Assembly (NCBI GenBank): GCA_002011075.2
Contig: MTMA02000006.1
Location: forward strand, 831,261 to 855,260
Direction of reading: 5' to 3'
Length of the DNA: 24,000 bases
DNA from: Candidatus Scotarchaeum otlingeri
GTDB lineage: Archaea > Thermoproteota > Nitrososphaeria > Geothermarchaeales > JDFR-13
Part shown: piece after piece, positions 2,344 to 24,000 of the stretch
Numbering within the stretch: position 1 is the first letter of the stretch
Layout of the letters: the number at the start of each line of letters is the position of its first letter
Made by a program: the position numbers and the translations under genes
The notes under the pieces: model-generated
Database searches by the model: none
The model's input: the letters and a program-made list of their open reading frames with translations, nothing else
Told to the model about the DNA's origin: nothing

Positions 2344-2347
2344 ATAT

Positions 2348-3358: not shown

Positions 3359-3364
3359 GCGGCT

Positions 3365-4615
3365 GTGTCAACTATCGATGTCGAGGGTGCTAATCAGGAA
3401 GCATTCGGGAGGATAATAAATGGTGAACCATGGGTAATAGATATAGACATTGCTCGTAGAGTCATACCGGGATTAAAGAATAAGATGCTACTTCATGCAG
3501 GCCCTCCCATACAATGGAATAGGATGGCTGGACCAATGAAAGGGGCAGCGATAGGCGCACTGATTTTCGAGGGATGGGCTGATGATGAGGCGGATGCATT
3601 AAAACTTCTTGAGGAAGGTGAAATTGATTTCTCACCCAATCATGATCATGACGCTGTGGGACCGATGGCAGGCATTACAGCACCATCGATGCCTGTTTTC
3701 ATAATCGAAAATCAGAGGTATGGTAATAGGACTTTCTGTACACTAAATGAAGGACTGGGAAAAGTTCTACGTTATGGAGCATATTCCAATGAAGTAATAG
3801 ATCGTCTCAACTGGATGAAGCAAGTTCTAGCGCCAGCATTGAAGGAGGCTATTAAATTGTCGGGTGGTATAAATCTTAAGGAGATAATTTCTAGGGCGCT
3901 TCACATGGGTGACGAATGTCATAACCGAAATTTCGCAGGGACAAGCCTATTCCTTAATGAGATTACACCATATCTTCTTGATCTAGATCTTTCCAGTAAA
4001 GAATTATCATCTATAATAAATTTCATAAAAAATAATGGACATTTCTTTCTAAATCTATCGATGCCAGCGATTAAATCAATGTTAGACCCTGCTCATAACA
4101 TTAAGAATTCAACTATAGTAACGGTAATGTCACGAAACGGCGTTGATTTCGGAATTAGAGTCTCTGGATTAGGGGATGAATGGTTTACCGATGCCGCTCC
4201 TATACCTAAAGGCCTATATTTCCCGGGATATAGCGAAGCAGATGCTAATCCAGATATCGGTGATAGCTCTATAACAGAGACAGGTGGCATAGGGGGATTT
4301 GCAATGGCGTCCGCCCCAGCTATAGTCCAATTTGTAGGTGGTACAGCTCAAGATGCAGTGAACTATACTAAGGAGATGTACAATATAACATGGGGAAAGC
4401 ATAAAGCATTTACAATACCATACCTAAATTTCGTGGGTACTCCAACGGGAATAGATATAATTAAGGTCGTTGAAACTGGAATAACTCCCGTTATAAACAC
4501 AGGAATAGCTCATAAGGAACCGGGCGTAGGTCAAGTGGGTGCAGGCATATTAAGAGCCCCGATATCAGTATTCAACAAAGCTCTAAGAAGGTTTGCCGAG
4601 AAGATAGGGATCTGA
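3365..4615 (+). CDS. ylbE: DUF1116 protein, YlbE/AllG homologue
   Basis: 416-aa ORF with a GTG start 6 nt after the previous stop. There are long collinear matches to E. coli YlbE as recalled: LLHAGPPIQW..MAGPMKGA, FEGWA, AVGPMAGIT, GNRTFCTLNEGLGKVLRYGAY, FGIRVSGLGDEWFT, ANPDIGDSSITETGGIGG and VVETGITPVINTGIAHKEPGVGQVGAG. Confidence 0.88.
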   Translation: MSTIDVEGANQEAFGRIINGEPWVIDIDIARRVIPGLKNKMLLHAGPPIQWNRMAGPMKGAAIGALIFEGWADDEADALKLLEEGEIDFSPNHDHDAVGPMAGITAPSMPVFIIENQRYGNRTFCTLNEGLGKVLRYGAYSNEVIDRLNWMKQVLAPALKEAIKLSGGINLKEIISRALHMGDECHNRNFAGTSLFLNEITPYLLDLDLSSKELSSIINFIKNNGHFFLNLSMPAIKSMLDPAHNIKNSTIVTVMSRNGVDFGIRVSGLGDEWFTDAAPIPKGLYFPGYSEADANPDIGDSSITETGGIGGFAMASAPAIVQFVGGTAQDAVNYTKEMYNITWGKHKAFTIPYLNFVGTPTGIDIIKVVETGITPVINTGIAHKEPGVGQVGAGILRAPISVFNKALRRFAEKIGI

Positions 4616-4634
4616 AATAGCCATTATACTAATC

Positions 4635-5453
4635 TCATATATTTACCTCAGTTGCTACATATATGCCTAAAACCAGATGCTCTCCGCTGCCTGACCCTCT
4701 ATTCAGAATATTCGTTAAATCAATAATTGATTCAGACCTATTGTCTATTAGATTATTGTATAGGCGCTCAAAATCTTCATCCACATGTCCATTTACAGCT
4801 TCCCACAGCATCCACCGGCTAATCATATCCAATCTATCAGATAACGTGTTATATGTAGCCACTGCATATGAAGCTATCTCATCATATAGACCGGATTTTT
4901 TATATAGCCAGTTCAAGAGTGAGAAATACCCAGATATAATATCGATGGCATAAGGTGTTGATCCTAAGCCCCATGTAGCCAAGCTAGGATTTATATCTTC
5001 CATTCTTATTAATCTATCAATCAGTATGCCATATTTATCTCTTATCTCTCTATTTATCGCCATCGTCCCATCAAAATTATGATAAGGAATTCTATGTCTG
5101 TAGAACATTATTAGTGTCCTTATTCTTCTCTTTAGTGCGCTGACATCTTCCTTTTTTGGATATCGGAGATGTGGTCTCCACACTATGTTAGGCAAATATA
5201 TTACGTAGTTATCTAATGTTATTGAATTATCCTCCAGCTCTAATCTTTCTATAGAGCTAAACTCAATGGGATAATCAAGGTTTATAATTCTAATTCCCCT
5301 AGGTCTCATGGATGATAAGATGGTGAATAGAAAGTCCCCGCTATACAGATGGATTGAATGCTTAGTAGAGCCATATATGCTTATCTCATCGAGTCTCTTA
5401 ATATTACTATATAATAAATACCCTATTGACCTTGCACTTAATTCTATACTCAT
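4635..5453 (-). CDS. Probable DUF2877 protein (YlbF/AllH-like)
   Basis: 272 aa, against 271 aa for E. coli YlbF. GLGSTPYAIDIISG resembles the YlbF GLTPSHDDTLSG motif. RGSGSGEHLVLG resembles LGHTSGADTLLG. The N-terminal pattern STKHSIHLYSGDFLFTIL resembles RRAINLMTESGELLTL. Synteny with fdrA and ylbE supports the call. The motif recall is approximate. Confidence 0.6.
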   Translation of the reverse strand: MSIELSARSIGYLLYSNIKRLDEISIYGSTKHSIHLYSGDFLFTILSSMRPRGIRIINLDYPIEFSSIERLELEDNSITLDNYVIYLPNIVWRPHLRYPKKEDVSALKRRIRTLIMFYRHRIPYHNFDGTMAINREIRDKYGILIDRLIRMEDINPSLATWGLGSTPYAIDIISGYFSLLNWLYKKSGLYDEIASYAVATYNTLSDRLDMISRWMLWEAVNGHVDEDFERLYNNLIDNRSESIIDLTNILNRGSGSGEHLVLGIYVATEVNI

Positions 5454-10399: not shown

Positions 10400-10483
10400 A
10401 TGGTAAACCGTAGAGAATTCTTAGTTGGAGGTCTTTCGCTTGCAGCTGGACTGGCTATCGGAGGTGCTGCTGTAGCATCGCTT
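10400..10483 (+). other. Twin-arginine (Tat) type signal peptide of the substrate-binding protein
   Basis: MVNRREFLVGGLSLAAGLAIGGAAVASL has RR-x-FL followed by an Ala/Gly-rich h-region. No lipobox cysteine is present. Confidence 0.55.
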
Positions 10484-11521
10484 AAGCCTACGGAAGAAGT
10501 TGTCACTACTCCTCAAGAAAAGGAGTATCTAAAGGCTGGATGGATATATGTGGGTCCTGTAGGTGATAAGGGATGGACATATGCGCATGACTTAGGTAGA
10601 AAATATGCCGAGGAACGGCTTGATTTCTTGGAAACCATATATATAGAGAGTGTTCAAGAGAAGGATGCCGACAGATACATAGATGAATTAGTTGAGGAAG
10701 GTTGTGATGTGATATTTACTACAAGCTATGGATACATGGATGCAACAATAGAAGCGGGGAAGCGCTATCCTGATAGGATATTTATGCATTGTTCAGGGTT
10801 CAAACGATCAGAGAATGTAGGTACCTATTTTATCCGGATGTATCAGCCCTATTATTTAAATGGGCTTATAGCGGGTGCTGTAACCAAGTCGAATAAACTT
10901 GGTTATGTAGCGGCTTTTCCTATTCCCGAGGTCGTAAGGCATATTAATGCCTTTCATCTAGGAGCTAGAGAAATGAACCCGGATGTAGAGACATATGTGG
11001 TCTGGATATATAGCTGGTTTGATCCTGATGCGGCTAGAAGTGCAGCCGAGACTTTGATAGGCCAAGGTATAGATGTGTTAGCATTTACAGAAGACACGTC
11101 TACAGTTGTTGAGGTAGCCGAGGAAAATGGGGTTTTCTCGTTCGGACATTATACCGATATGAGTATGTATGGGCCTAATGCCCATCTTTCTGGCCAGATA
11201 GCTAACTGGGGAGTTATATATGAAGATGTTCTTATAAGAGCTTACACTGGTGTATGGTATAGTAAGGACTATTGGTGGGGGTTCGCTGAGGGAGCTGTTG
11301 ATATAGCACCTATGAATAAATATGTTCCTAGTGATGTTAAGGCGTTAGTTGAGGAAAGAAAGGCGTTAATGGCTGAATGGACCTTTGAACCATTTACAGG
11401 GCCTATCTATGATAGAGATGGTAATTTACAAGTTCCAGATGGAGAGAGGGCTTCTCACGACCATCTATGGAATATGATGTATTTCCTACCAGGAATAGTA
11501 GGCGAATTGCCTACTACCTAA
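10400..11521 (+). CDS. BMP-family (PnrA/NupN/Med-like) ABC transporter substrate-binding protein
   Basis: 373 aa with an N-terminal Tat-like signal. The mature part is typical of basic-membrane-protein nucleoside receptors (GDKGWTYAHD, CDVIFTTSYGY, GYVAAFPIPEV, AFTEDTS). It is followed by the ATPase and two permeases in nupNOPQ order. Confidence 0.85.
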   Translation: MVNRREFLVGGLSLAAGLAIGGAAVASLKPTEEVVTTPQEKEYLKAGWIYVGPVGDKGWTYAHDLGRKYAEERLDFLETIYIESVQEKDADRYIDELVEEGCDVIFTTSYGYMDATIEAGKRYPDRIFMHCSGFKRSENVGTYFIRMYQPYYLNGLIAGAVTKSNKLGYVAAFPIPEVVRHINAFHLGAREMNPDVETYVVWIYSWFDPDAARSAAETLIGQGIDVLAFTEDTSTVVEVAEENGVFSFGHYTDMSMYGPNAHLSGQIANWGVIYEDVLIRAYTGVWYSKDYWWGFAEGAVDIAPMNKYVPSDVKALVEERKALMAEWTFEPFTGPIYDRDGNLQVPDGERASHDHLWNMMYFLPGIVGELPTT

Positions 11522-11529
11522 TTTTTTTT
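11522..11529 (+). terminator. Oligo-T tract (T8) immediately after the SBP stop codon; candidate partial terminator or attenuator
   Basis: Read directly: TAA(11519-11521) then TTTTTTTT. The next gene starts at 11541. Archaeal RNAP terminates at oligo-T runs. Confidence 0.35.
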
Positions 11530-11540
11530 AGTGTCCCGTT

Positions 11541-13055
11541 ATGAATGATAATATAATAATAAGGGCTAATGGTATAAGAGTAGAATATCCAAATGTAGTA
11601 GCAAATGATAATGTAGATTTCGAATTGCTACATGGCGAAATACATGGCCTATTGGGTGAAAATGGCGCTGGGAAAACAACCTTAGTTAATGTTATTTATG
11701 GCATAAAAAGGCCTGATTCTGGGGAACTATATATTTTTGGAGATAAAATTACTTCCTTCTCCCCCAAGGTAGCACAGAGATATGGATTATATATGATTCC
11801 TCAGCACTCAATACTCGTTGAGCGTCATACAGTTCTTGAGAATATTGCATTGGCCCTTCCTGGTTTCAAATTAAATAAGAAAGCTCTTAGAGCTAAGGTG
11901 ATGAGGCTAATTAATAGGCTTAGATTAGAGCTAGACCTAGATAGTAAGGTAATGGATTTGAGTGTTGGTGAAAAGCAGAGAGTTGAAGCAATAAGGGCAT
12001 TAGTTAGGGGAGCTAAAGTTTTAATAATGGATGAACCCACATCCGTTTTATCTCCAATGGAGACTTATTCATTATTTTCATTCATTAGAAACTTAAAGAA
12101 GGAAGGATTATCAGTTATCTTTATTACCCATAGATTGAGGGAAGTGATGGAGCTTTGCGATAGGGTAACTGTTTTGAGGAAAGGACGTAATATGGGTACG
12201 TTGACAAGAGAGGAAATGACCATAGATAAATTAACAGAATTGATGTTCAGTAGAAAGATTATGATTAGACGATATAATAACAGATCCATGCAAGGTAAAG
12301 TCATATTATCACTAAAGAATGTATCTACATTTAGTAATGGTGGATACATCGGACTAAAGGATATTAGTCTAGATATACGGGTCGGAGAAATCGTGGGGAT
12401 TGTCGGTGTGGCGGGTAATGGACAGAATGAGTTAGCTCAAGTCGCAGTGGGCCTAATTAAGCCACATAGCGGACGAATCATAATAGATGGAGATGACTTA
12501 ACAGGAAAATCAATATTTGAATTCTATAAGAAGGGACTGGCCTATATACCCGACAATATACTGGATGGATTAGTCCTAGATATGACATTGACTGAAAATG
12601 CTATTCTTAAGCTTTATAGAACCTCTGGATTCTCGATGAACCATATAGTTGATTGGGAGACAGCGAAAAGATATACAAGTGAGATAGTCAAGAACCTCGA
12701 GATCAAGACTCCAAGTATAGATGTTAAGATTAAGAGTTTGTCCGGCGGAAACCTTCAGAGATTTATTCTATCAAGAGAATTATCGAATAACCCCAAGATA
12801 ATTATAGCTGTACACCCTAGCCGGGGGTTGGACCTCGAGTCTACAGCGAAGGTTCTGGGTTATCTAGCGAAAATGAAATCGCATTCTGGGATTCTATTGA
12901 TAACTGAGGATCTCGATGAAGCTATTAAAATCTGTGATAAGATAATGATCATATATAAAGGAAAACTTTCGAAGCCCATGAATATAGATAACCTAGATTA
13001 CGAGTTGGCTGGGAAAATGATGTCTGGAGCGGTCTCCATTGAAGAAGCAAATTGA
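11541..13055 (+). CDS. ABC transporter ATP-binding protein, duplicated ATPase (nucleoside/sugar CUT2-type)
   Basis: 504 aa. Walker A GENGAGKTT, signature LSVGEKQRVE and Walker B LIMDEP. The second half has GVAGNGQNEL and LSGGNLQRF. Confidence 0.92.
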   Translation: MNDNIIIRANGIRVEYPNVVANDNVDFELLHGEIHGLLGENGAGKTTLVNVIYGIKRPDSGELYIFGDKITSFSPKVAQRYGLYMIPQHSILVERHTVLENIALALPGFKLNKKALRAKVMRLINRLRLELDLDSKVMDLSVGEKQRVEAIRALVRGAKVLIMDEPTSVLSPMETYSLFSFIRNLKKEGLSVIFITHRLREVMELCDRVTVLRKGRNMGTLTREEMTIDKLTELMFSRKIMIRRYNNRSMQGKVILSLKNVSTFSNGGYIGLKDISLDIRVGEIVGIVGVAGNGQNELAQVAVGLIKPHSGRIIIDGDDLTGKSIFEFYKKGLAYIPDNILDGLVLDMTLTENAILKLYRTSGFSMNHIVDWETAKRYTSEIVKNLEIKTPSIDVKIKSLSGGNLQRFILSRELSNNPKIIIAVHPSRGLDLESTAKVLGYLAKMKSHSGILLITEDLDEAIKICDKIMIIYKGKLSKPMNIDNLDYELAGKMMSGAVSIEEAN

Positions 13056-14082
13056 CGAGTTGATTCTTGCCCTACCTTCATGGGTGTTTCTGCCGATAGC
13101 TATCATCCTCTCCCTAATAATTTTTGGTGTAATACTTGTAGTTAATGATAAGAATCCGATATTAGTTTATCACGAAATAATAATAACAGGCTTCGGGAGT
13201 TATAGAGGTTTAAGTGAAACCTTAACCACCTCCATCCCACTGATATTAGCAGGGGTAGGCTTATCTATTGCTTATAAGGCTAATCTATGGAATATAGGGG
13301 CTGAGGGCCAGCTATATATGGGGGCGATAGGGGCAGGCATCATAGCTTATGAGTTTTCACCTACCCCAGTAAGTCTTATCGGCATGTTTATATTTGGATT
13401 CTTATTTGGTGGGGTATGGGGATTAATACCGGCTTTATTGAAAAGATATTATGAAGTAAATGAGATAATCACGACGCTTATGATGAACTATATAGCCATT
13501 CATATAATGGATTATCTTGTTTTTGGTAGATGGAGAGACCCAACTACATTTGGCTTCCCTTTTACACCATTATTGCCCGATAATATGATTATACCTAGGT
13601 TATTACCAGGTTCCCGGCTACATGCCACAGTAATCATAGCTATATTTGCTTCTATAGCTATCTATCTCCTAATGTATAAGACCACCGAGGGTTATGAGAT
13701 AAGGGTATATGGAGGGAATCCGGAGGCTGCCAGGTACTCAGGTATTAATATAACCAAAGTGCTTCTATTATCAATGTTCCTAAGCGGTGCATTAGCCGGT
13801 ATCGCCGGAGTCGGAGAGTTCGCTGGAATACATAGGAGGTTAACAACAGGCTTTTCCAAAGGATACGGCTATACAGCAATATTGATCGCATGGCTGGGGT
13901 CGCTTAACCCCATATATGTAATGGTTGCAGCTATATTATTCTCCGGCTTTGTAGTAGGTTTAGATGCGCTACAAATATCTATTGGGTTACCATTTGCATC
14001 GATATACCTATTCGAGGGAATTCTGTTAATAGCTATATTGATAAGGGAATATGCGGAAAGGGTGAAAGCGAGATATGTTTGA
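13039..14082 (+). CDS. ABC transporter permease (BPD_transp_2 family, NupP/YufP-like)
   Basis: Polytopic hydrophobic 347-aa ORF with NIGAEGQLYMGA and TTLMMNYI motifs. The TTG start at 13039 overlaps the ATPase stop by 17 nt, so the exact start is uncertain. Confidence 0.82.
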   Translation: MKKQIDELILALPSWVFLPIAIILSLIIFGVILVVNDKNPILVYHEIIITGFGSYRGLSETLTTSIPLILAGVGLSIAYKANLWNIGAEGQLYMGAIGAGIIAYEFSPTPVSLIGMFIFGFLFGGVWGLIPALLKRYYEVNEIITTLMMNYIAIHIMDYLVFGRWRDPTTFGFPFTPLLPDNMIIPRLLPGSRLHATVIIAIFASIAIYLLMYKTTEGYEIRVYGGNPEAARYSGINITKVLLLSMFLSGALAGIAGVGEFAGIHRRLTTGFSKGYGYTAILIAWLGSLNPIYVMVAAILFSGFVVGLDALQISIGLPFASIYLFEGILLIAILIREYAERVKARYV

Positions 14083-15013
14083 GGATATAGCATTATTTCT
14101 AGAGGTTAGCCTCTCCGCAGGCTCTGTATTACTTCTAGCGGCACTAGGTGAGATAGTTGCTGAGAGATCTGGAATACTAAACTTGGGTGTAGAGGGAATG
14201 ATGAGTACGGGAGCACTGGCTGCTTTTTATATATCACTAATGACACAAAATCCGTATCTCGGTATAATTGTCGGTGGGTTATCAGGCCTTCTATTATCTT
14301 TAGCCCATGCATTTACGTCTGTAACTCTGAAAGCTAATCAGATATTGAGTGGTCTAGGGCTGGCTATTCTAGGAATAGGATTAAGCGGCTTCTTTGGGAA
14401 ACCGGTCATAGGCATGATAGCTCCGTCACTTGATATCATAGCTATACCCCTTTTATCTGATATACCGTTTGTTGGGGTGATATTATTTAGACAAGACATA
14501 TTAACCTATTTTAGCCTGATATCTGCATTAGTATTAGGATATATTATATATTATACAAAGCTGGGATTGGTTCTTAGGACGGTGGGTGAAAACCCTGAGG
14601 CGGCTGATTACATGGGGATTAATGTCGACTTGGTAAGGTATATAGCTATCATGATAGGAGGATTATTTGCTGGGTTAGCTGGGGCGCAGTTATCACTTGT
14701 CCACCTACCTACATGGATCGAGAATATGACGGCGGGTAGGGGATGGATAGCCCTTGCATTGGTCATATTCTCGCTTTGGAATCCCATGCTAGCGCCATTT
14801 GCATCTACGTTTTTCGGTGCGTTATCTATATTGCCATATTATCTTCAAATCTTCGGTTTCAGGGTTGGAACGGGTCTTTTGGCGACCATACCTTATCTAG
14901 GTACAGTATTATCTATGACCCTGATATCGATGAGTAGGTTTAGGAAATATCTTGGTGCTCCGGCTGCATTAGCGAGACCATATATCCGGGGAGAGAAGGA
15001 ATTATATAAATAA
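14075..15013 (+). CDS. ABC transporter permease (BPD_transp_2 family, NupQ/YufQ-like)
   Basis: 312-aa hydrophobic ORF. It overlaps the previous permease by 8 nt. Contains LNLGVEGMM and a GENPEAADYMGINV loop. Confidence 0.85.
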   Translation: MFEDIALFLEVSLSAGSVLLLAALGEIVAERSGILNLGVEGMMSTGALAAFYISLMTQNPYLGIIVGGLSGLLLSLAHAFTSVTLKANQILSGLGLAILGIGLSGFFGKPVIGMIAPSLDIIAIPLLSDIPFVGVILFRQDILTYFSLISALVLGYIIYYTKLGLVLRTVGENPEAADYMGINVDLVRYIAIMIGGLFAGLAGAQLSLVHLPTWIENMTAGRGWIALALVIFSLWNPMLAPFASTFFGALSILPYYLQIFGFRVGTGLLATIPYLGTVLSMTLISMSRFRKYLGAPAALARPYIRGEKELYK

Positions 15014-15026
15014 TTATGATGCATCA

Positions 15027-16964
15027 TTACTCATATAGTTCTTCTATAAAATCGAAGATCGCATTTGCCAAGCCTTCTTTGTCTCCTACATACTCTCTAT
15101 ATCCGCCCTCTCTAGATATAAGTATAGCGCTATGTATCTCATGCGAAATCTTTGCTAGGTCATTAGCGACTACCATCTCAATACCGAGACTATCTAGCTC
15201 CTCCCGTGCTTTTTTAACCAGCGCCTCCTTATCCACATTGTACTCTAGTTTGAATCCAACGATAAATAGATCATTAAATTGTCTCCGTATCTCAGCTATT
15301 ACTTTAGGGGCGGGTGTAAGATCGATAGACCATTCTCGTCCCGACCTAAATTTATAATCCAAGAACTTTCTTGGTTTATAGTCCAGAATGGCTGCAGCGA
15401 ATATAGCGATATCATGTTTTTCTTTGGATAATTCTTTTTCTGCATTTCTTAACATGTCTTCAGTTGTAATTGCATCCACTACATCAGTGTGCCTCGGCAT
15501 AGATACTTTTCCAGGACCGTAGATAACCGTTACCTTACATCCTCTTTGAAATGCTTCTCGGGCTAACCAATATCCCAGCCGCCCTGTTGACCTATTGGAT
15601 ATATATCTTATTGGATCGATAGGATATTGGGTCGGCCCTGCTAATATAAGTACTTTTCTATCGGACAATCTACTAGCCTTGACAGCTCTAATAATATAGT
15701 CTATAGCTTCATCTGGCTTTGCTATTTTAGCAGCTCCCTCTTCATATATGGGTTCTATGAAATTTACGCCTAGCTCCTTAAGTCTAGATACACTGTTTCT
15801 AAAGATTGGATTATTATATAGCTTTAGATTCATTGCAGGTGCAATTATTAGCCTATTTGGCGCTGTGGCGGCACATAATGTTGTTACAGCGTTATCAGCG
15901 ACGCCATTTGCAATCTTGTTTATAGTATTCAATGTTGCTGGATAGATAATTACGGCATCATATTGGGAGATATGCTCTGCCTTTCCGCTCAATTCGATTA
16001 CTACCTCTTCATCTGATGCCCACTCCATAACTTTAGGGCTGACTCCATAATCCACAGCATATTTAGTCATAAATACTTTTACTTCACCGCCATATCTCCT
16101 AATTAATCTAGCTAATTTAGGGGCTTCTATAGTAGCCACACTTCCAGTGAGACATAGACCGATCTTCTTGCCGAGAAGCTTATTTGACTTTATTCTTAGC
16201 TCATTCTCACCTTCAATAATGTGGCTATAATCTATATAGCTTGTTTTACATGGACTTCCAGATGCATATAATAACCTTGGTTTCTCTCCATAAGCGATTA
16301 TTGTAGATGAGGATGTAACCCAATCTTCACCATGCATACATATGGAGTATCTCGTATATCCATGTTGATGATCCCTAGCGATATTAATGAGCCAATCGAT
16401 GATTCCACCTATTTTTTCAGGGGGGTTCTTAGTAAGCTCCTGAGCTCGCTTAAACCTGGTCATACAAGCCTTATAAGCCGTCTCATCATAGTTCTTGGGT
16501 CTATATCCCTCTGTCGACATGATATTAGTGAATATATGTATACCCCCAGGAAGATCTCTCCTATAGATTTCATTATCATATAATATGTGTACTAGACGGG
16601 AACTATCGCATAAAACGAAATTACCCTTCTTATAGATACCCCTTGAAAGCTCTTTTTCAAGATGATCTAATGCCTGATCCACTGAATCGTAGTTAAGTAA
16701 TATATCCAGCATTAGTTTCCCTCTACTCCTTTTACTCACCCACCATTCACCAGTGTGCTGATCCACAACCATAGCCATCAAACCCTTTTCATTAAAGCCT
16801 ATCCATGTTCCCCCTGAAGCAAGATCAATCGGCATATAGGCTGTATATCTACCGGAATACCGGCTAGGAGGGTATTCGATAGTCCCGATAGGAGCATATC
16901 TATTATCAAGGACTATATAGGGATACTCTTTATTCCATTGATATAATATAATACCGAGGCACAT
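15027..16964 (-). CDS. coaBC: Triple-domain fusion: N-terminal TANGO2/NRDE-family domain (aa 1-~250) + phosphopantothenoylcysteine decarboxylase CoaC (aa ~264-430) + phosphopantothenate-cysteine ligase CoaB (aa ~436-645)
   Basis: Single uninterrupted 645-codon ORF. The N-terminal domain has an MC start, LDNRY (vs NRDE), GGTWIGFNEKGLMAMVVD, KRSRGKLMLDIL and SICMHGEDWVTSSSTIIAYG, which parallel human TANGO2 GGTWLGISTRGKLAALTN, ARGRGELVTHFL and CVRCPGYGTRTNTIILVD. CoaC: KIGLCLTGSVATIEAPKL, YPATLNTINKIANGVADN and APAMNLKLY. CoaB: VLILAGPTQYPIDPIRYISNRSTGRLG, AAAILDYKP and VGFKLE. Confidence 0.85.
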   Translation of the reverse strand: MCLGIILYQWNKEYPYIVLDNRYAPIGTIEYPPSRYSGRYTAYMPIDLASGGTWIGFNEKGLMAMVVDQHTGEWWVSKRSRGKLMLDILLNYDSVDQALDHLEKELSRGIYKKGNFVLCDSSRLVHILYDNEIYRRDLPGGIHIFTNIMSTEGYRPKNYDETAYKACMTRFKRAQELTKNPPEKIGGIIDWLINIARDHQHGYTRYSICMHGEDWVTSSSTIIAYGEKPRLLYASGSPCKTSYIDYSHIIEGENELRIKSNKLLGKKIGLCLTGSVATIEAPKLARLIRRYGGEVKVFMTKYAVDYGVSPKVMEWASDEEVVIELSGKAEHISQYDAVIIYPATLNTINKIANGVADNAVTTLCAATAPNRLIIAPAMNLKLYNNPIFRNSVSRLKELGVNFIEPIYEEGAAKIAKPDEAIDYIIRAVKASRLSDRKVLILAGPTQYPIDPIRYISNRSTGRLGYWLAREAFQRGCKVTVIYGPGKVSMPRHTDVVDAITTEDMLRNAEKELSKEKHDIAIFAAAILDYKPRKFLDYKFRSGREWSIDLTPAPKVIAEIRRQFNDLFIVGFKLEYNVDKEALVKKAREELDSLGIEMVVANDLAKISHEIHSAILISREGGYREYVGDKEGLANAIFDFIEELYE

Positions 16965-18576: not shown

Positions 18577-18678
18577 TTGGTTCCCTTAATTTATAAACAT
18601 AATGATTCAAATATAAATATTCACCTTACTGGCTTTTTTGGATTAGATAACTCATGTAATTATAGATACATATTTCTT

Positions 18679-19455
18679 TCATAGATAATATATGTCTCTC
18701 CTTCTCTCATCTAATAAAGGCAGCAGTTTCCTCATTTCCACAATCTCAGATAGATCAATTTCCACAGCTAACAGTTTTTCCCCTTCACCCGCTTCGATTA
18801 ATATGTTGCCTTTAGGAGAGGCAACTAAAGAGTTACCGCAAAAATGGTATTTATCTGTTCCGACACGATTACATGCAACCATATACACCTGATTTTCTAT
18901 AGCCCGTGCAAGAATCAGAGACCGCCAATGATGTATCCTCTTACACGGCCATTCTGCACATATAAATATTATCTCTGCTCCTTTTAGGGCTAGGGTTCTA
19001 GCGAACTCTGGGAACCTTAGATCGTAACATATCATCATACCTATTTTATAGCCATTTACATTATAGACTTCTACTGAATTCCCAGCCTCAAAAATCTTAT
19101 GTTCGCCCATTAGTTTAATCAGATGTGTTTTATGATAAAATCCAATTAAGCCGTCTGGACCTATTAGATGCATAGAATTATATAGTTTATCTCCCTCCTT
19201 GAGGGGTACTGAACCCATTATATAAATATTGTTCTCTTTTGCTTTTAGAGTAAGTTGAGTGAATAATTCACTATCTCTATTCTCTGCTAAGTCATAGATA
19301 TTATCGGCATATGCTGTCGTCCATAGTTCAGGTAGAAGAATAAATTCAGCTCCCTGAGAAGCCAATTTATCGATAGAGTTAAATGCCTTCCTAATATTAG
19401 TATCCTTATCCCCTATGGAGATATCTAGCTGGGCTATACCTACATGTACCTTCAT
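18679..19455 (-). CDS. Carbon-nitrogen hydrolase (nitrilase superfamily; omega-amidase/MtnU/YafV-like)
   Basis: 258 aa. The Glu-Lys-Cys triad is in LPELWTT, YHKTHL and MMICYDLRFPE. CAEWP...HW..L..ARAIENQ is typical of the Nit/omega-amidase branch. It resembles B. subtilis MtnU as I recall it. The start overlaps the upstream stop (ATGA). Confidence 0.85.
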   Translation of the reverse strand: MKVHVGIAQLDISIGDKDTNIRKAFNSIDKLASQGAEFILLPELWTTAYADNIYDLAENRDSELFTQLTLKAKENNIYIMGSVPLKEGDKLYNSMHLIGPDGLIGFYHKTHLIKLMGEHKIFEAGNSVEVYNVNGYKIGMMICYDLRFPEFARTLALKGAEIIFICAEWPCKRIHHWRSLILARAIENQVYMVACNRVGTDKYHFCGNSLVASPKGNILIEAGEGEKLLAVEIDLSEIVEMRKLLPLLDERRRDIYYL

Positions 19456-20117
19456 AGGAAATTCACCATATATCTATGTGTAATCTTCCTATTGAGAATC
19501 GGGTCCTCCATCTCTATTATAAATTCCCTAGTGTAACATAGATCTCGCTTCAATGGAATCGTCCCGGAGAAGAGAGCTACACCCTTTCTATTCAAATCAA
19601 ATATTTCAAGGAGCCTTTCAGGGTGAATAATCATCTCGAGGAATCCCTCTTGATATAGCTCTAGCCTATTGTTCATAACTACATAGGAACGTATAATCAG
19701 TTTATCCCAATGCTCTCTCAATTCGTTATATCGCCATACAGTCGGCGCAATTATTTTAGGACATAGCTGTTTTGAGCGTTGAATATCGCTTTTCTCGAGC
19801 CATCTATCTGTATGGTCGCTACCGACAGTTACGTATATATCGTCACCTATTAAAAGGACATACTCAACTTCACCCGATGTCTTATCGCCAATTACTTCGA
19901 TTTTATCCCCTGTAGTCAGGAGATAGGGTGATACCCTCATAATTATAGGGGTGGATTTAGGGGCTGGTACACCTAATTTCTGGAGCTCTAATATATGCAT
20001 CCGAACTAATTCTCGGTTCCTACCTGTATAGCCAGCTAAATATAACTCTTCAATATCAACTAGCTCATCCACTAATTCTCCATCTGCTTCTACTATTTCG
20101 ACCTTGATTTTAACCAT
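19452..20117 (-). CDS. Conserved protein of unknown function, DUF2848-like
   Basis: 221 aa. AGYTGRN..V..HI.EL..LGVP.P, TSGEVEYVLL, VGSDHTDR, SKQLCPK and HWD fit my memory of the DUF2848 consensus. No catalytic assignment is possible from sequence alone. Confidence 0.4.
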   Translation of the reverse strand: MVKIKVEIVEADGELVDELVDIEELYLAGYTGRNRELVRMHILELQKLGVPAPKSTPIIMRVSPYLLTTGDKIEVIGDKTSGEVEYVLLIGDDIYVTVGSDHTDRWLEKSDIQRSKQLCPKIIAPTVWRYNELREHWDKLIIRSYVVMNNRLELYQEGFLEMIIHPERLLEIFDLNRKGVALFSGTIPLKRDLCYTREFIIEMEDPILNRKITHRYMVNFL

Positions 20118-20142
20118 TATGTATCCTCATCAACAATTAAGG

Positions 20143-21465
20143 TTAGTCTAGCATTGTAGCAAGCGGACCTTTCTTCCACGCCTCTATAGCAGCCTTAAGT
20201 TCAGGATGATCTTCTGCGTATTCTTCTAGTGGTATTTTTTTCATAGTGGCTTCGATAGCTTGTCTAAAGGATTTGGCTCCGGCTCTTGGACCCATGGGAT
20301 GTGCATGTATAGCTCCGCCAACACCGATCGCTACATGTATCCCGAAATCCTTGACTAATTTAGGCACCATCAATTGCGTTATGCCTCCAGCCGGCATCGG
20401 TAAAGTCGGTAGAATATGTTGCATTGGAAATAATAGCGTCCTTCCTACCTTCAGATACTTATCTTTGATATAGAATGGCTGCTTGCCATAAGGAGCAGGA
20501 TATACCATGATATCGGCTCCAGCCAACCTCGGTAGTTTACCCATAATAATCTCTGATGATACTCCTGTCTCTGGGTCCTCATATATTGCCCCCGCGAAGT
20601 CCATATGTGCAAGTATAGGTACATTGATACTGGGATCCTCGGCCAGCCCCTTAAGTGTTCCTATACCAGCAGTCAAATAATTAACCATCAATGCATTAGC
20701 ACCTAGCTCTATCACCCTATCAGCCAATTCAAATATCCTCGGTGGGTCCGCAGTAATGTTTATCGTATACATCTTCTTCTCCCCTGTCTCCTCCTCCGCT
20801 TTATCCACGACCTCCATATACTTGACGATTCTGTCTTCAACTTTATTGAACGGGGCATCGGCAAGAAGCTCATCGTCTTTCACAAAATCGACTCCTCCCA
20901 CCAAGGCTTCATAAGCCAGTCGTGCGCCGATATCAGGCGGGAAACCCGTGCAGGGCTTAATCATATTGTTTAGGATTGGTCTGTCCGTTACCTTAAGGTT
21001 ATATCTTATCCCAGGAACACCGAACTTAGGTCCCTTAAATAATTTTATGAATGACTTTGGGAAAGAAACATCTATTAACTTGACTCTCCCTGCAAGAGAG
21101 ATATTACCTACTATTGTAGATAACATCATGGAAATTTCATTCATAAAATTCTCGTATGGAAAAGCGATGGAGATGAGATATCGCCTTAAATTAATCTCCT
21201 CAGGAACCTCATACTCATAGTCTGGCACTTCATTTATCCTAATTACTTTAGCCACGTGACGTCTCCTCAACTCAGGGGTCTCCCCGGGAACCTTTGTCCA
21301 TGTACCTGTAGATTGCTCTATAGCAATCAACATAGATACCTTGTCAACCTCCCAATTCCTAGGCAAAGCGGTATAATATGTAGCTATAATATATCGTTCA
21401 GGGTCGATACCTTCTGGAAGCGCTATGGGAAGCGATTCGACATCGACATCATCCATATTATGCAC
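20143..21465 (-). CDS. RuBisCO large-subunit-like protein, form IV (RLP), not a carboxylase
   Basis: 440 aa. The RuBisCO fold motifs STGTW, VGN, FVKDDE, GGxxxHAHP and GxRAGAxxxRQA are present. KPKxG is KPCTG, HRAMH is HMDFA, HVGT is MVYP and SGG is AGG. The overall pattern is close to YkrW/MtnW-type RLPs (GLAEDPSINVPILAH, GADIMVYPAPYG). The track start is GTG 21465. ATG 21456, preceded by GGGGTG, is an equally good start. Confidence 0.88.
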   Translation of the reverse strand: MHNMDDVDVESLPIALPEGIDPERYIIATYYTALPRNWEVDKVSMLIAIEQSTGTWTKVPGETPELRRRHVAKVIRINEVPDYEYEVPEEINLRRYLISIAFPYENFMNEISMMLSTIVGNISLAGRVKLIDVSFPKSFIKLFKGPKFGVPGIRYNLKVTDRPILNNMIKPCTGFPPDIGARLAYEALVGGVDFVKDDELLADAPFNKVEDRIVKYMEVVDKAEEETGEKKMYTINITADPPRIFELADRVIELGANALMVNYLTAGIGTLKGLAEDPSINVPILAHMDFAGAIYEDPETGVSSEIIMGKLPRLAGADIMVYPAPYGKQPFYIKDKYLKVGRTLLFPMQHILPTLPMPAGGITQLMVPKLVKDFGIHVAIGVGGAIHAHPMGPRAGAKSFRQAIEATMKKIPLEEYAEDHPELKAAIEAWKKGPLATMLD

Positions 21466-21519
21466 CCCAATATCATAGTTAATATACGATAATAAATTCT
21501 GTCATAATACTGAGTTACG

Positions 21520-23028
21520 CTAGCCATTTAACGCTGCATATGCATCAGCGAGATAATCATGCATCTCTTTATAGACTTCATATAATTCTCCATATACCTC
21601 CTCATACTCCTCATTGGGATGATAATGATATTGATACCTTATATTCTGCACAGCTTCTGCCAACGAATGATACTTACCGGCTCCAACCATAGCCATCAGT
21701 GCAGCTCCTTCTGCTACAGATTCTACAATGTCTCTCACAACCCTTATCTCCTTCTGTAACACATCAGTTATAACCTCTGAAACTGTTCTTGACCTAAGAA
21801 ATCCTCCTGAAGCAGGGAAATAATCATGGGATACACCTGTATTCTCCTCCACCAGCTCACTGATCCATCTCAGGTTGAAACCGATACCTTCAACAAGTGC
21901 CCTAGCCACATCACTAATTTTATGGTCTAGACTTAGATTGAAGAAGCATCCCCTTGCATATATATCTGGTATGGGCGCTCTCTCGCCGTACATCCATGGA
22001 AGAAATATAACCTTATTTGCTCCAGGAGAACTTGCCTTAATCAAACCATCCATATAACTATATGGATCCCGTTCCTTAGAGATACCCGATATAAAGGTAT
22101 CGATAAACCATTTATACGCCGCGCCTGCGCTCTCCATCTCGCCTATAAATATCCATAAATTGGGTTCCGTGAATAATATTGTACCCATACCATGTTCAGC
22201 ATCTAGCATCCGCTCTTCAACTATAGTGGATATCCATGCTGAGGAACCTATATATAGATGAGTATCTCCAGGTGAAACAGCGCCTGTACCTATTGATGCA
22301 GCTATAACATCCCCAGATCCGTTGACGACTATAGTATCCTCATCTAGACCCAGTTCATTAGCAGCATCACTGGACAAATGACCTACTACATCTAATGCAC
22401 CCTTGAATTCAGGATATTTCTCTATATCCAAATTGAATATCTCAGCTATTCTATCGGAATATTTGAGATTATTCATATCAAAAGTTCCCCTTACAGATGC
22501 ACATGCATAATCTGTGACCACTTCACCCGTCATTTTATAGATTATGTAGTCTTTAACATCCATTATGTACTCTGCATCATCATATATATCAGGCTTATTA
22601 TTCTTAAGCCATAGAATTTTGGGTAAAGCATCTTTTCCACCTGGTACTCCACCTACATGGTCAAGAAGCTCGTCGACACCAAATTCTCCTAGTATCTCAT
22701 CGGCCTCTTCTTCCGCTCGGTTATCAAGCCAAATGATACATCTAGTTAAAGGACTTCCCTCTTTAGAGAGAGGAAGAACCCCTATCATCTGGGCACTTAT
22801 ACTGAGAGCTTCAACTTTGATGCCGGTTTTATCAGCCTTTGTTATCAATTTATTTATGACGTCTTTAATTCCAAGCCACCAATCATCTGGATCTTGCTCA
22901 GCCCACCCCTTTTCCGGATAGAATGTTCTCAATGAACTTGATGCAGTAGATATCAATTCTAGGTTTTCATCGACAAGGACCCCTTTTATCGCACCGGTAC
23001 CAAGATCTAAACCAATATAATAACTCAT
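21520..23028 (-). CDS. FGGY-family carbohydrate kinase (xylulokinase/ribulokinase-like; substrate unknown)
   Basis: 502 aa. N-terminal YIGLDLGTGAIKGVLVD. Also has GSGDVIAASIGTGAV...IGSSAWIS and a C-terminal ASGGFLRSRTVSEVITDVLQKEI. Its ATG lies 8 nt after the upstream stop. Confidence 0.85.
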   Translation of the reverse strand: MSYYIGLDLGTGAIKGVLVDENLELISTASSSLRTFYPEKGWAEQDPDDWWLGIKDVINKLITKADKTGIKVEALSISAQMIGVLPLSKEGSPLTRCIIWLDNRAEEEADEILGEFGVDELLDHVGGVPGGKDALPKILWLKNNKPDIYDDAEYIMDVKDYIIYKMTGEVVTDYACASVRGTFDMNNLKYSDRIAEIFNLDIEKYPEFKGALDVVGHLSSDAANELGLDEDTIVVNGSGDVIAASIGTGAVSPGDTHLYIGSSAWISTIVEERMLDAEHGMGTILFTEPNLWIFIGEMESAGAAYKWFIDTFISGISKERDPYSYMDGLIKASSPGANKVIFLPWMYGERAPIPDIYARGCFFNLSLDHKISDVARALVEGIGFNLRWISELVEENTGVSHDYFPASGGFLRSRTVSEVITDVLQKEIRVVRDIVESVAEGAALMAMVGAGKYHSLAEAVQNIRYQYHYHPNEEYEEVYGELYEVYKEMHDYLADAYAALNG

Positions 23029-23036
23029 AATCCCAT

Positions 23037-24000
23037 CTACCTCCTCCTATATTCATACTCATATTCGATACTTACTTCAATAATAGATTCCTCCAAAATA
23101 TGCAGAGCCCTATCTATCTCCTCATAACTTATCGTTAAGGGAGGTTTGAACTTGATAGTATTCATAAAAGAAAACTCATCCCCATATACATCAGGCATAT
23201 CAAGAGCAAATATCGCACCTTTCTCCAGGGCTCTATCTACAATTTCAGAAGCCAATTCAGGAGAAGGCGTCTTATCATCCTTATCCTCAACTATATCGAT
23301 ACCAATAAATAGGCCGGGACCTCTTACATCCCCAATTATCTCAGATCTCTCCATTATCTCTCTAAGTCTTCTAGTTGCATATAATCCCTTATCCCTAGCC
23401 TCTTTAATTAGATCAAGCTTCTCAATAACCATTATATTTACTAATGCTGCCGCATAAATTACTGGGTTACCCCCGAAAGTAGTATGTTCCTCTGGATATG
23501 TTAAGCCCTTAATATCTTCTCTAGCCAGAGTTGCGCCGATTGGATAACCGCCTCCTAATCCCTTTGTGAATGTCATCATATCAGGTGTAACGTTATATAG
23601 TTCGGCGGCACACCATGCACCTACCCTTCCGAATGCGGTTTGTGACTCATCGAATATAAGATAGATATCGTATTTGTCTGTCAATTCTCTCAGAGCTTTT
23701 AGATATTCTATGGGTGCAGGTATATGTCCACCGGGTCCCTGTATGGGTTCAATAATTAGCCCTGCGTATTTTCCCCAGCCGCCCCTCTTTATCGTATTCT
23801 CTAACACATCAATACATCTAAGGCTACATTCAGGGTAGGAGAGACCAAAGGGACATCTATAACAATATGGATAGGGGAATCTAACGAATCTGTCAATACC
23901 GAATGGTTTATACCTTATTAATGTCGTCAATGGGTGACTTGCACTTGTAGTGGCTAAACTATTTCCATGATATCCTCTCCATGCCGTCAGAAATATCTCT
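23037..24000 (-). CDS. Class-III (omega) PLP aminotransferase (GabT/ArgD-like); the N-terminus lies beyond the window end
   Basis: The reading frame stays open upstream of the track's TTG. My translation of 23931-23999 gives ..EIFLTAWRGYHGNSLATTSASHP, the GYHG region of class-III enzymes. It also has IIEPIQGPGG, FDESQTAFGRVG and the PLP-lysine motif TFTKGLGGGYP. Confidence 0.85.
   Translation of the reverse strand, partial: EIFLTAWRGYHGNSLATTSASHPLTTLIRYKPFGIDRFVRFPYPYCYRCPFGLSYPECSLRCIDVLENTIKRGGWGKYAGLIIEPIQGPGGHIPAPIEYLKALRELTDKYDIYLIFDESQTAFGRVGAWCAAELYNVTPDMMTFTKGLGGGYPIGATLAREDIKGLTYPEEHTTFGGNPVIYAAALVNIMVIEKLDLIKEARDKGLYATRRLREIMERSEIIGDVRGPGLFIGIDIVEDKDDKTPSPELASEIVDRALEKGAIFALDMPDVYGDEFSFMNTIKFKPPLTISYEEIDRALHILEESIIEVSIEYEYEYRRR

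Follow-up and report, generated by a model that had tools for sequence, protein, structure and literature searches.

The conserved unit in the five-gene operon examined in the present study is smaller than the operon itself, and consists of an FGGY-family carbohydrate kinase, a form-IV RuBisCO-like protein (RLP), and an enzyme of amine/carbonyl chemistry. Sequence comparisons suggest that the two remaining genes, which encode a DUF2848 protein and a Nit-branch amidase, are a lineage-specific addition to the RLP cluster. The original prediction treated all five genes as one enzymatic set. However, the set was not co-conserved: DUF2848 and Nit were found in 0 of 80 other RLP loci, including by an HMM search, and RLP, FGGY, and the aminotransferase in 0 of 83 DUF2848 loci. 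The expectation that no described RLP context has this gene set was borne out, in that a description of the five-gene set was not found in the searchable literature.

Operon layout and boundaries

The window, a stretch of 24,000 nucleotides from Candidatus Scotarchaeum otlingeri, carries five open reading frames (ORFs) on the minus strand in the order aminotransferase, FGGY kinase, RLP, DUF2848, and Nit. Our ORF check recovered the layout originally described, with gaps of 8 nt (aminotransferase/FGGY), 54 nt (FGGY/RLP), and 25 nt (RLP/DUF2848); DUF2848 and Nit share the 4 nt ATGA. Strong Pfam matches supported all five family assignments, including the FGGY type of the kinase and class III of the aminotransferase. 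The 54-nt gap is counted from GTG 21465; it becomes 63 nt because the public gene call places the RLP start at ATG 21456, which is preceded by GGGGTG. The internal starts of the operon are preceded by Shine-Dalgarno-like motifs, GAGGA lies inside the RLP/DUF2848 gap, and terminator-like sites were not found in any of the junctions. Both the gene layout and the ribosome-binding motifs would fit a single transcript. A 483,747-bp JGI contig contains the window in reverse complement, and the five-gene arrangement recurs on contigs from three independent samples.

The first gene encodes a class-III (omega-type) aminotransferase (23037..24000, minus strand; Aminotran_3, 1.4e-60) and is cut by the window end, which leaves the C-terminal ~320 aa. 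The complete protein has 462 aa (L001:5693-7081) and would start at window-equivalent position 24425. Beyond position 24000, where the original prediction recommended a search for further pathway genes, the JGI contig continues with the rest of the aminotransferase, then 130 nt of AT-rich spacer, and then an MFS transporter gene in divergent orientation; therefore, the operon truly consists of five genes. mtnA, mtnB, mtnK, mtnP, mtnX, and mtnD were absent from the 30 kb around it, in agreement with the earlier remark that no mtnA/B/X/D homologues were visible. At the other end, a 102-nt AT-rich spacer 3' of Nit (18577..18678, minus strand), with the TATA-like elements ATATTTATAT and TTTATAAAT, precedes an IMP dehydrogenase gene (TIGR01302, 570 bits) and probably marks the 3' end of the operon.

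The RLP clade and its kinase

The RLP (437 aa; 20143..21456, minus strand, the ORF extending to GTG 21465) contains both RuBisCO large-subunit domains (RuBisCO_large, 1.6e-52; N-terminal domain, 1.8e-12). Its best solved matches are the MtnW/YkrW structures of Bacillus subtilis (2zvi) and Geobacillus kaustophilus (2oek), with E ~1e-75 and 34-36% identity; these have the same RuBisCO large-subunit fold, and the JGI annotation of the clade is MtnW. However, the position of the MtnW catalytic Lys98 is occupied by Asn in the window RLP and in 32 of 32 clade members, and the RLP scored below the cut-offs of both curated MtnW equivalog models. We rejected the identification of this protein as MtnW on these grounds, and the original view of an RLP that is most similar to MtnW and yet lacks its defining lysine was correct.

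In RuBisCO numbering, the RLP keeps E60, T65, W66, N123, K175, and K201 (E50, T55, W56, N121, K170, and K196 in the protein) as well as D203, E204, H294, K334, G380, and G381 (D198, E199, H287, K328, G360, and G361). K177, R295, H298, and H327 are replaced by C172, M288, A291, and V321, respectively. All 32 aligned clade RLPs show replacements at these four positions and retain E60, T65, W66, N123, K175, K201, E204, H294, K334, G380, and G381. Judged by the general roles of these residues in RuBisCO, the clade appears to have lost the distal-phosphate site and retained the proximal-phosphate site. Because K177, R295, H298, and H327 are replaced, the RLP should be unable to bind ribulose 1,5-bisphosphate canonically. 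MtnW also lacks these four residues and keeps K175, K201, D203, E204, and H294; in contrast, E60 and K334 are present in the RLP and lost in MtnW. The AIEQSTGTW N-domain motif, the VGN motif, the KDDE metal site, and the loop-6 lysine of form III RuBisCO (e.g., Pyrococcus horikoshii 2cwx) are kept; however, the RLP scored 278 against a cut-off of 497 with the form III model TIGR03326. The nearest relative outside the clade is a form-III-type RuBisCO of a Hodarchaeota MAG (L172:3518-4852; 41% identity), and here, too, an FGGY kinase gene comes next.

Two clade-specific peptides, NMIKPCTG and GGAIHAHP, were used to scan species-representative genomes, and at least 534 relatives were recovered, among others from Bathyarchaeia, Asgard archaea, Chloroflexota, and Actinomycetota. 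The clade was sister to MtnW in a limited tree; all trees in the present study were simple neighbour-joining trees. The RLP belongs to a large, uncharacterised, FGGY-linked clade distinct from MtnW; it is partnered by an amine/carbonyl enzyme and a kinase of the FGGY family, and MtnW by MtnK/A/B/X/D.

The kinase (502 aa; 21520..23028, minus strand; FGGY_N, 5.2e-55; FGGY_C, 1.2e-23) best matched the curated XylB model (332 bits against a cut-off of 380) and, among solved structures, gluconate kinase 3gbt (1.8e-61). It groups with the FGGY copies of two archaeal aminotransferase-type loci (L015 and L076). Our neighbourhood survey covered the best-scoring 80 of 534 RLP loci. An FGGY homologue was present in 69 of the 80 by tblastn, in almost every case immediately upstream and in the same orientation, and within 5 kb of the RLP in 65 of the 80 by ORF clustering, ORF calling being crude in high-GC loci. 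Xylulokinase and gluconate kinase, the closest characterised relatives, phosphorylate the sugar end distant from the carbonyl, which fits awkwardly with proximal-phosphate binding by the RLP.

Amine/carbonyl partners and the DUF2848-Nit pair

The invariant part of the module would be the FGGY-RLP pair. As a third partner, loci have either a class-III aminotransferase or an enzyme resembling saccharopine dehydrogenase, and the two hardly ever occur together. Among FGGY-containing loci, 31 had only the saccharopine-dehydrogenase-like gene, 23 only a class-III aminotransferase, and none had both (Fisher p ~1e-9 on raw loci, uncorrected for phylogeny). This either/or choice points to one amine/carbonyl step. 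The two types of loci interleave on the RLP tree, and the class-III aminotransferases recruited belong to two distinct subfamilies. Orthologues of the window enzyme, which carries the PLP-lysine motif TFTKGLGGG, adjoin FGGY-RLP in ~20 other loci (50-68% identity). Among solved structures, Pyrococcus PLP racemases are the nearest to the window enzyme; therefore, it may not transaminate at all. The solved relatives of the saccharopine-dehydrogenase-like protein are only C-N-bond enzymes, namely, carboxyspermidine dehydrogenase, saccharopine dehydrogenases, and PH1688, the last of which is distant (E 1.3e-11). The same either/or enzyme choice exists for the conversion of an omega-amine to an aldehyde, which is catalysed by class-III lysine 6-aminotransferase or by lysine 6-dehydrogenase of the saccharopine-dehydrogenase fold (e.g., PH1688).

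The closest RLP relatives (76-83% identity) are in loci composed of a saccharopine-dehydrogenase-like gene, FGGY, and RLP. To the RLPs of Bathyarchaeial-type loci with the dehydrogenase-like gene, the window RLP is 74-83% identical, and the window FGGY and aminotransferase are closest to a Desulfurococcales locus (52 and 68%, respectively). The operon is a mosaic of these two affinities.

The DUF2848 protein (221 aa; 19452..20117, minus strand; PF11010, 6.9e-61) gave an AlphaFold model with a pLDDT of 96.5. A Foldseek search of the PDB with this model returned 36 matches at E<=1e-3, all to the fumarylacetoacetate hydrolase (FAH) superfamily (KdaD, Cg1458, FAHD1, and HpcE), with a probability of 1.0, TM ~0.6, and 13-19% identity; a solved structure matching by sequence was not found. 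The model shares its fold with the FAHD1/Cg1458 oxaloacetate decarboxylases, the KdaD dehydratase, and HpcE. However, sequence identity is low, and the DUF2848 family is uncharacterised. Its invariant residues are E83, E85, D101, D104, K116, H41, and E44, and the Glu-x-Glu...Asp pattern and the His...Glu pair three residues apart appear similar to the metal site and the lid dyad of FAH enzymes.

The last gene encodes a Nit-branch carbon-nitrogen hydrolase (258 aa; 18679..19455, minus strand; CN_hydrolase, 7.7e-58) with E43, K109, and C143 in PE, HKTHL, and CYD motifs. Its best curated model was the YafV-type amidohydrolase (161.6 bits against a cut-off of 249), and its solved relatives include 3p8k, a P. 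abyssi nitrilase, PH0642, and mouse Nit2 (8.5e-39). It appears nearest to YafV/Nit2-type omega-amidases. The pairing of an aminotransferase with a Nit-branch amidase resembles the glutamine transaminase/omega-amidase couple (B. subtilis mtnV-mtnU, mammalian Nit2, and E. coli YafV). However, the aminotransferase of that couple is class I, and Nit was not detected in the other aminotransferase-type RLP loci; therefore, the pathway does not depend on an omega-amidase. The neighbours of DUF2848 elsewhere were Cupin_7 (21), HpaB (9), amidase-signature amidases (8), and Nit (3).

Pathway models

We give an even chance to a composite operon, in which an FGGY-RLP-aminotransferase pathway for a keto-sugar phosphate and an amine carries an appended amidase/FAH module. 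The kinase would most likely phosphorylate a keto-sugar-like compound. The RLP would bind the monophosphate through the retained proximal-phosphate site and a Mg2+/carbamyl-lysine centre, enolise it, and then isomerise or otherwise rearrange it. Amine/carbonyl interconversion in the same pathway would be performed by the aminotransferase here and by the saccharopine-dehydrogenase-like enzyme in most relatives. DUF2848-Nit would be a separate module, appended in this lineage only and probably co-transcribed with the core; most plausibly, an amide-bearing oxo-acid (a transamination by-product of the 2-oxoglutaramate or 2-oxosuccinamate type) would be hydrolysed and the resulting oxo-acid processed. 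We infer the position of the substrate phosphate, the substrate, the pathway direction, and the coupling of DUF2848-Nit to the aminotransferase, and the coupling of the pair to the core solely from adjacency in one lineage. An uncharacterised keto-sugar-phosphate/amino-compound pathway was one of the two options originally offered and is the better fit, although nothing supported the part of it that assigned core chemistry to DUF2848. The Rhodospirillum rubrum RLP and apiose pathways use MtnA/MtnP or DUF1537 kinases and not FGGY. The R. rubrum RLP (a 5-methylthioribulose-1-phosphate 1,3-isomerase) and OiaX/OiaT of the apiose pathway act on monophosphorylated keto-sugars or keto-acids via an enediolate (PMC6302742, PMC10176493), which is similar to the chemistry proposed here.

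Two unrelated units may simply be juxtaposed, with DUF2848-Nit as an independent amide/oxo-acid catabolic pair under a shared or its own promoter. The complete lack of co-occurrence outside this lineage, the amidases, cupins, and aromatic-type hydroxylases beside DUF2848 elsewhere, and the mosaic operon speak for this arrangement; however, we regard it as unlikely given the short, terminator-free RLP/DUF2848 junction, its repetition in three samples, and the functional sense of an omega-amidase beside an aminotransferase. The other option of the original prediction, a rewired methionine-salvage-like or 5-deoxy-sugar salvage route, appears quite improbable. In it, FGGY would directly make 5-methylthio- or 5-deoxy-ribulose-1-phosphate, the RLP would act as MtnW or the Rhodospirillum isomerase, the aminotransferase would make an amino acid, and Nit would be the omega-amidase MtnU. 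A 5-substituted pentulose can be phosphorylated only at C1, which would fit the proximal-phosphate site; the MtnW matches and annotation, a Nit-aminotransferase pair that recalls mtnU-mtnV, and, in relatives' loci, a class II aldolase-family gene (MtnB's family; 10 loci) and a HAD phosphatase (MtnX-like logic; 4 loci) also favour it. However, the analogy is weakened by the missing Lys98, the two failed MtnW cut-offs, the absence of mtn genes, and an aldolase-family neighbour that reaches only 85 of the 137 bits set as the cut-off of the MtnB model, and the scheme leaves the saccharopine-dehydrogenase-like alternative without a place. Archaea usually obtain MTR-1-P by phosphorolysis, for which a kinase is not needed. 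Moreover, the host lineages are presumably anaerobes; therefore, the O2-dependent acireductone step of MtnD would not be possible.

In a further model, which we consider very doubtful, a phosphorylated keto-acid sugar would be (de)carboxylated or cleaved at a C-C bond by the RLP, in the manner of the apiose RLPs, and DUF2848 would process the oxo-acid product. E60, N123, and K334, which serve the CO2-addition and carboxyketone steps in RuBisCO, are retained in the clade and lost in MtnW; the nearest non-clade relative is the FGGY-linked Hodarchaeota RuBisCO, the best solved match of the kinase is an acid-sugar kinase, and oxo-acids are substrates of FAH enzymes. RLP decarboxylases are also known (PMC10176493). 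However, the RLP scored 199.6 against a cut-off of 700 with the OiaX model, the kept residues are no evidence of carboxylation, and the recurrent amine/carbonyl partner is not predicted by this reading. DUF2848 is absent from the 80 other clade loci, and, therefore, is not part of the general chemistry.

The composite reading places the aminotransferase-FGGY-RLP core of this archaeon in a broader context: it is one version of a module that, with no role assigned to it, is widespread among hundreds of uncultured and presumably anaerobic organisms.

Identity and active site of the RuBisCO-like protein

The RuBisCO-like protein (RLP) of the operon (minus strand, ORF at 20143-21465; the public gene call starts at the ATG at 21456 and gives 437 aa) contains both RuBisCO large-subunit domains, PF00016 and PF02788. 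Its best matches among solved structures were MtnW proteins, the DK-MTP-1-P enolases of methionine salvage (2zvi from B. subtilis, 3.6e-75; 2oek from G. kaustophilus, 1.3e-74). However, its scores were below the cut-offs of both MtnW equivalog models (NF007095, 358.2 bits with a cut-off of 409; TIGR03332, 305.2 bits with a cut-off of 513.6). The score against NF042437, the model for the 3-oxo-isoapionate-4-phosphate decarboxylase OiaX, was also below its cut-off (199.6 and 700 bits, respectively). The protein did not classify as a bona fide form III RuBisCO (TIGR03326, 278.4 bits with a cut-off of 497; four canonical residues replaced), and its substitutions (K177 to C, R295 to M, H298 to A, and H327 to V) are those of form IV in the broad sense.

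The window RLP and 31 members of its clade (32 sequences) were aligned with the P. horikoshii RuBisCO, a Hodarchaeal form-III-type protein, and G. kaustophilus MtnW using the spinach RuBisCO numbering. Residues E60, T65, W66, N123, K175, K201, E204, H294, K334, G380, and G381 were kept in 32/32 clade sequences and D203 in 31/32. The carbamylatable lysine and the Mg2+ ligands are present in the window RLP as K196, D198, and E199 (K201, D203, and E204, respectively). Across the clade, K177 was replaced by Cys, R295 by Met, H298 by Ala or Ser, and H327 by Val. In RuBisCO, the distal (C5) phosphate is bound by R295, H298, and H327, and the proximal phosphate by T65, W66, G381, and G403/404. The residue pattern of the clade predicts a monophosphate substrate that the proximal site would bind and the Mg2+/carbamate centre would enolise.

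The original prediction that the RLP lacks the residue defining MtnW enolases proved correct. Both MtnW references have Lys at the N123 position (the catalytic Lys98 of G. kaustophilus), whereas the window RLP has Asn121 and all 32 clade members have Asn. MtnW also has Gly at E60 and Ser at K334, whereas the clade keeps E60 and K334. In a limited neighbour-joining tree, in which the form-IV landmarks were PDB sequences only, the clade was sister to the MtnW group, and both were next to form III. The window RLP shares 34-36% identity with MtnW proteins and 41% with the Hodarchaeal form-III-type protein. Judging from its sequence, it is a form IV protein and almost certainly not MtnW. Many clade members are publicly named 2,3-diketo-5-methylthiopentyl-1-phosphate enolase (JGI) and some ribulose 1,5-bisphosphate carboxylase (NCBI). 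Both names are probably wrong because Lys98 and the RuBP-binding residues are missing and the model scores are sub-threshold.

Kinase and amine-handling partners across the clade

A scan of one genome per species with the clade-specific peptides NMIKPCTG and GGAIHAHP identified 534 relatives, and the best 80 of the 534 loci were retrieved. Archaeal loci among these 80 were from Bathyarchaeia, Baldrarchaeota, Desulfurococcales, Hadarchaeales, Theionarchaea, Thermoplasmata, and Thor- and Odinarchaeota, and bacterial loci were from Anaerolineae, Dehalococcoidia, Actinomycetota, Bacillota, Caldisericota, Deferribacteres-like bacteria, and Acidobacteria. An FGGY homologue was detected by tblastn with the window proteins in 69 of the 80 loci, nearly always directly upstream of the RLP on the same strand. 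Of the 11 loci without a match, several have little sequence 5' of the RLP. In two Dehalococcoidia loci without FGGY (L065, 7679-9935; L056, 2-1516), a UPF0261 protein and a PEP-hydrolase-like protein (PF09370) precede the RLP, and this pair may be an alternative to the kinase.

The window FGGY kinase (minus strand, 21520-23028) contains the FGGY_N (5.2e-55) and FGGY_C (1.2e-23) domains, and its score against the xylulokinase XylB equivalog TIGR01312 was below the cut-off (332.2 and 380.25 bits, respectively). Its closest homologue (P0241, 54% identity) adjoins an MFS transporter; the RLP from that sample is on another contig. A 666-kb NCBI contig carries DUF2848 and FGGY homologues, and neither DUF2848 nor an RLP was found within 9 kb on either side of the FGGY gene. 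We also considered an LsrK-like AI-2 kinase combined with an RLP that would process phospho-DPD, which resembles the MtnW substrate in being a 2,3-diketone. This idea was rejected: the AI-2 kinase model gave 170 bits (cut-off of 528), less than the XylB and gluconokinase models, and no LsrF/G-like genes were present.

Outside the clade, the protein closest to the window RLP (41% identity) is a form-III-type RuBisCO of a Hodarchaeota MAG (JBHLKK010000013.1; at 3518-4852 in the L172 region 2056-4852), which has all canonical active-site residues and scores 450 bits against TIGR03326 (cut-off of 497). It is directly followed by an FGGY kinase, a 2-hydroxyacid dehydrogenase, and an Ldh-like gene. 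The same MAG also carries a saccharopine-dehydrogenase-like gene (hereafter, dehydrogenase-like gene) with FGGY and an RLP. The FGGY linkage of this form-III-type RuBisCO suggests that the kinase linkage may predate the loss of the distal-phosphate site.

ORFs were called in the 80 loci and clustered, and recurrent families were annotated. The most frequent were the saccharopine-dehydrogenase-like protein (approximately 32 loci) and class-III aminotransferases (approximately 26), followed by MFS transporters (16), a class II aldolase-family protein (10), a nitroreductase-family protein (9), acyl-CoA dehydrogenases (8), a small PF25653-like protein (7 by ORF clustering, 9 by tblastn), a HAD phosphatase (4), and TetR regulators (a few loci). 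FGGY lay no more than 5 kb from the RLP in 65 loci; of these, 31 had the dehydrogenase-like gene only, 23 the class-III aminotransferase only, none both, and 11 neither (Fisher p ~1e-9, with the kinship of loci ignored). Both partners occurred together in one short locus without a detectable FGGY. The two types were interleaved on the RLP and FGGY trees.

The first gene of the window operon (minus strand, 23037 to past the window end) has an Aminotran_3 domain (1.4e-60) and the PLP-lysine motif TFTKGLGGG, which identify it as a member of the class-III aminotransferase family. Proteins orthologous to it (50-68% identity) form one aminotransferase subfamily, present in approximately 20 loci; a second, distant subfamily (approximately 30% identity) occurs in Bacillota-type loci. 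The only solved relatives of the dehydrogenase-like protein are carboxyspermidine dehydrogenase, saccharopine dehydrogenases, and PH1688, all of which act on C-N bonds. Lysine 6-aminotransferase and lysine 6-dehydrogenase provide a precedent for this exchange between an aminotransferase and a dehydrogenase. We infer a pathway with one amine/carbonyl interconversion, for which enzymes have been recruited independently on at least three occasions.

In Bathyarchaeia, the gene order is an aldolase-family gene, a divergent MFS transporter, the dehydrogenase-like gene, FGGY, and the RLP, and an aldehyde:ferredoxin oxidoreductase is often close by. This set reads like the catabolism of an imported amino-sugar-like compound to triose phosphate and an aldehyde, of which the direction and substrate are guesses. 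Two archaeal loci (L014, 3857-5008; L015, 7311-8414) have a class I/II aminotransferase of the HisC type between the class-III aminotransferase and FGGY; its TIGR01141 score of 301 bits exceeds the cut-off of 276. In Bacillota-type loci (L027, 4593-5357; L051, 6983-7675), the gene after the aminotransferase encodes a HAD phosphatase. These two enzymes point to the processing of phosphorylated keto or amino intermediates. The small PF25653 (HMG-CoA_red_N-like) protein is conserved, has approximately 120 aa (MxVPSFILKKLYVKGSLKN...), and is encoded directly 3' of the RLP in four archaeal loci (L015, 5390-5749; L064, 11319-11675; L071, 3111-3476; L076, 4736-5101) and a few kb from the RLP in five Anaerolineae loci (L022, L024, L026, L031, and L038). 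It is absent from the window, in which DUF2848 and Nit occupy that position.

Organization of the operon and the DUF2848-Nit pair

ORF calls, gene junctions, and Pfam matches of the main domains (E-values of 1e-52 to 1e-61) confirmed five minus-strand genes, the remaining two being DUF2848 (19452-20117) and Nit (18679-19455). The junctions consist of gaps of 8, 54, and 25 nt and one ATGA overlap, and no terminator-like sites were found within them. Shine-Dalgarno-like sequences precede the FGGY start (AGGAGG), the RLP ATG at 21456 (GGGGTG), and the DUF2848 start (GAGGA). The window corresponds, in reverse complement, to part of a 483,747-bp JGI metagenome contig, on which the aminotransferase is complete (462 aa). 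Inspection past nt 24000 on this contig revealed a 130-nt AT-rich spacer upstream of the aminotransferase and then a divergent MFS transporter. On the other side, a 102-nt spacer with TATA-like elements separates Nit from the IMP dehydrogenase gene. These boundaries indicate a unit of five genes, which are likely co-transcribed. A sigma-70 promoter scan (13 sites, 20 expected) was uninformative for this archaeal host. An Rfam scan of the window and 18 bacterial RLP loci detected no riboswitches, with tRNAs as the sole matches. As originally noted, mtnA, mtnB, mtnX, and mtnD were absent from the 24-kb window, which lacks methionine-salvage genes altogether; mtnK was absent as well, and none of these five genes was found in the 6 kb upstream.

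Other genes in the window include a class I/II aminotransferase and a geranylgeranyl reductase. Positions 3-5453 encode an amidohydrolase, an FdrA-like CoA-ligase-domain protein, a cyclase, and AllG- and AllH-like oxamate carbamoyltransferase subunits, followed by phosphoglycerate kinase. Together with a nucleoside-type Bmp ABC transporter (10400-15013), a phosphoribosyltransferase, and IMP dehydrogenase, this cluster gives the window a purine/nucleoside theme. In a 645-aa fusion protein (15027-16964, minus strand), a TANGO2 domain (PF05742, E 1.3e-10) occupies residues 1-152 at the N-terminus and is joined to CoaBC (TIGR00521, 299 bits), an enzyme of CoA biosynthesis. The fusion may reflect a functional connection of TANGO2 with pantothenate/CoA metabolism.

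The proposed co-conservation of the five families did not hold. DUF2848 and Nit were found in 0 of the 80 other RLP loci by tblastn, ORF clustering, and HMM/phmmer searches. Conversely, RLP, FGGY, and the aminotransferase were found in 0 of 83 DUF2848 loci (3 obtained by exact look-up and 80 by a metagenome scan). Recurrent neighbours in these 83 loci were Cupin_7 (21), HpaB-type hydroxylases (9), amidase-signature amidases (8), TPP enzymes (5), and Nit (3, adjacent in two). Conservation across RLP loci extends only to FGGY-RLP and one of two partners, the aminotransferase or the dehydrogenase-like gene, and DUF2848 and Nit are an addition local to the window lineage. The closest RLP relatives, of 83, 77, and 76% identity, are accompanied by the dehydrogenase-like gene and FGGY, and one of 79% identity stands alone; the five-gene arrangement was observed solely on identical contigs from three samples. 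The window RLP groups with Bathyarchaeial RLPs from dehydrogenase-type loci (74-83% identity), and the window FGGY and aminotransferase group with a Desulfurococcales locus (52 and 68%, respectively). On these groupings, the operon is a mosaic.

DUF2848 scored 205.7 bits against PF11010 (gathering score of 23.4), and sequence searches found no relative among solved structures. Its AlphaFold model, built on 32 sequences, had a pLDDT of 96.5. A Foldseek search of the PDB with this model returned 36 matches with E<=1e-3, all in the fumarylacetoacetate-hydrolase (FAH) superfamily with a probability of 1.0, including KdaD, the Cg1458 and FAHD1 oxaloacetate decarboxylases, and HpcE. Some DUF2848 proteins also match PF01557. 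The predicted fold of DUF2848 is that of FAH. Residues E83, E85, D101, D104, and K116 are invariant, as are H41 and E44, three residues apart; this pattern is presumably similar to that of the metal site and lid dyad in FAH. Nit has a CN_hydrolase domain (7.7e-58) with an intact Glu-Lys-Cys triad (E43, K109, and C143). It is nearest to YafV/Nit2-type amidases and scored below the cut-off of the YafV-type 2-oxoglutaramate amidase equivalog NF007757 (161.6 and 249 bits, respectively).

Function and evolution of the clade

The five genes form a real operon with a member of a large, functionally unassigned RLP clade. Only a handful of RLPs have a known reaction, and those characterised perform proton abstraction, isomerisation, decarboxylation, or oxygenation (PMC10176493, a 2023 review). 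A full-text literature search returned nothing on this gene set, an FGGY-linked RLP, its dehydrogenase-like partner, or DUF2848. The analogy with methionine salvage is weak: MtnW is the best solved match, but the MtnW model scores, the missing Lys98, and the absence of mtn genes nearby argue against it. The other original proposal, an uncharacterised keto-sugar-phosphate/amino-compound pathway, is a better description, and its core shrinks to a kinase, the RLP, and an amine-handling enzyme. DUF2848 and Nit lie outside this core. It is plausible that they are an oxo-acid-processing enzyme and an omega-amidase serving the aminotransferase, for which the FAH fold and the Nit2-type affinity may be considered. 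It is equally plausible that they are an unrelated passenger module, as their absence from the other RLP loci would allow.

We speculate, with low expectation for the reading as a whole, that the FGGY-linked RLP clade catalyses a reaction new to the RuBisCO superfamily; for example, a monophosphorylated keto-sugar could be carboxylated, decarboxylated, or cleaved at a C-C bond with the help of the retained E60, N123, and K334. The clade would then stand as an evolutionary intermediate between FGGY-linked form III RuBisCO and MtnW enolases, and subsurface archaea and bacteria would share a widespread sugar pathway, linked to amines, that the clade defines. For the FAH-fold DUF2848, acting with the Nit amidase in the window lineage, this would be the first function to be assigned.

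The clade is large and spans Archaea and Bacteria, including Asgard archaea, Bathyarchaeia, Chloroflexota, and Actinomycetota, and the MtnW name used by one public source is an annotation to correct. The FAH-superfamily fold for DUF2848 is a small independent gain. The position of the clade between form III RuBisCO and MtnW and its kinase-linked form-III-type neighbour both bear on the diversification of RuBisCO chemistry. The kinase partner and the either/or amine-handling partner offer a concrete route to the function of the clade, which is not categorically new in kind and is a clear, widely distributed target for function discovery.
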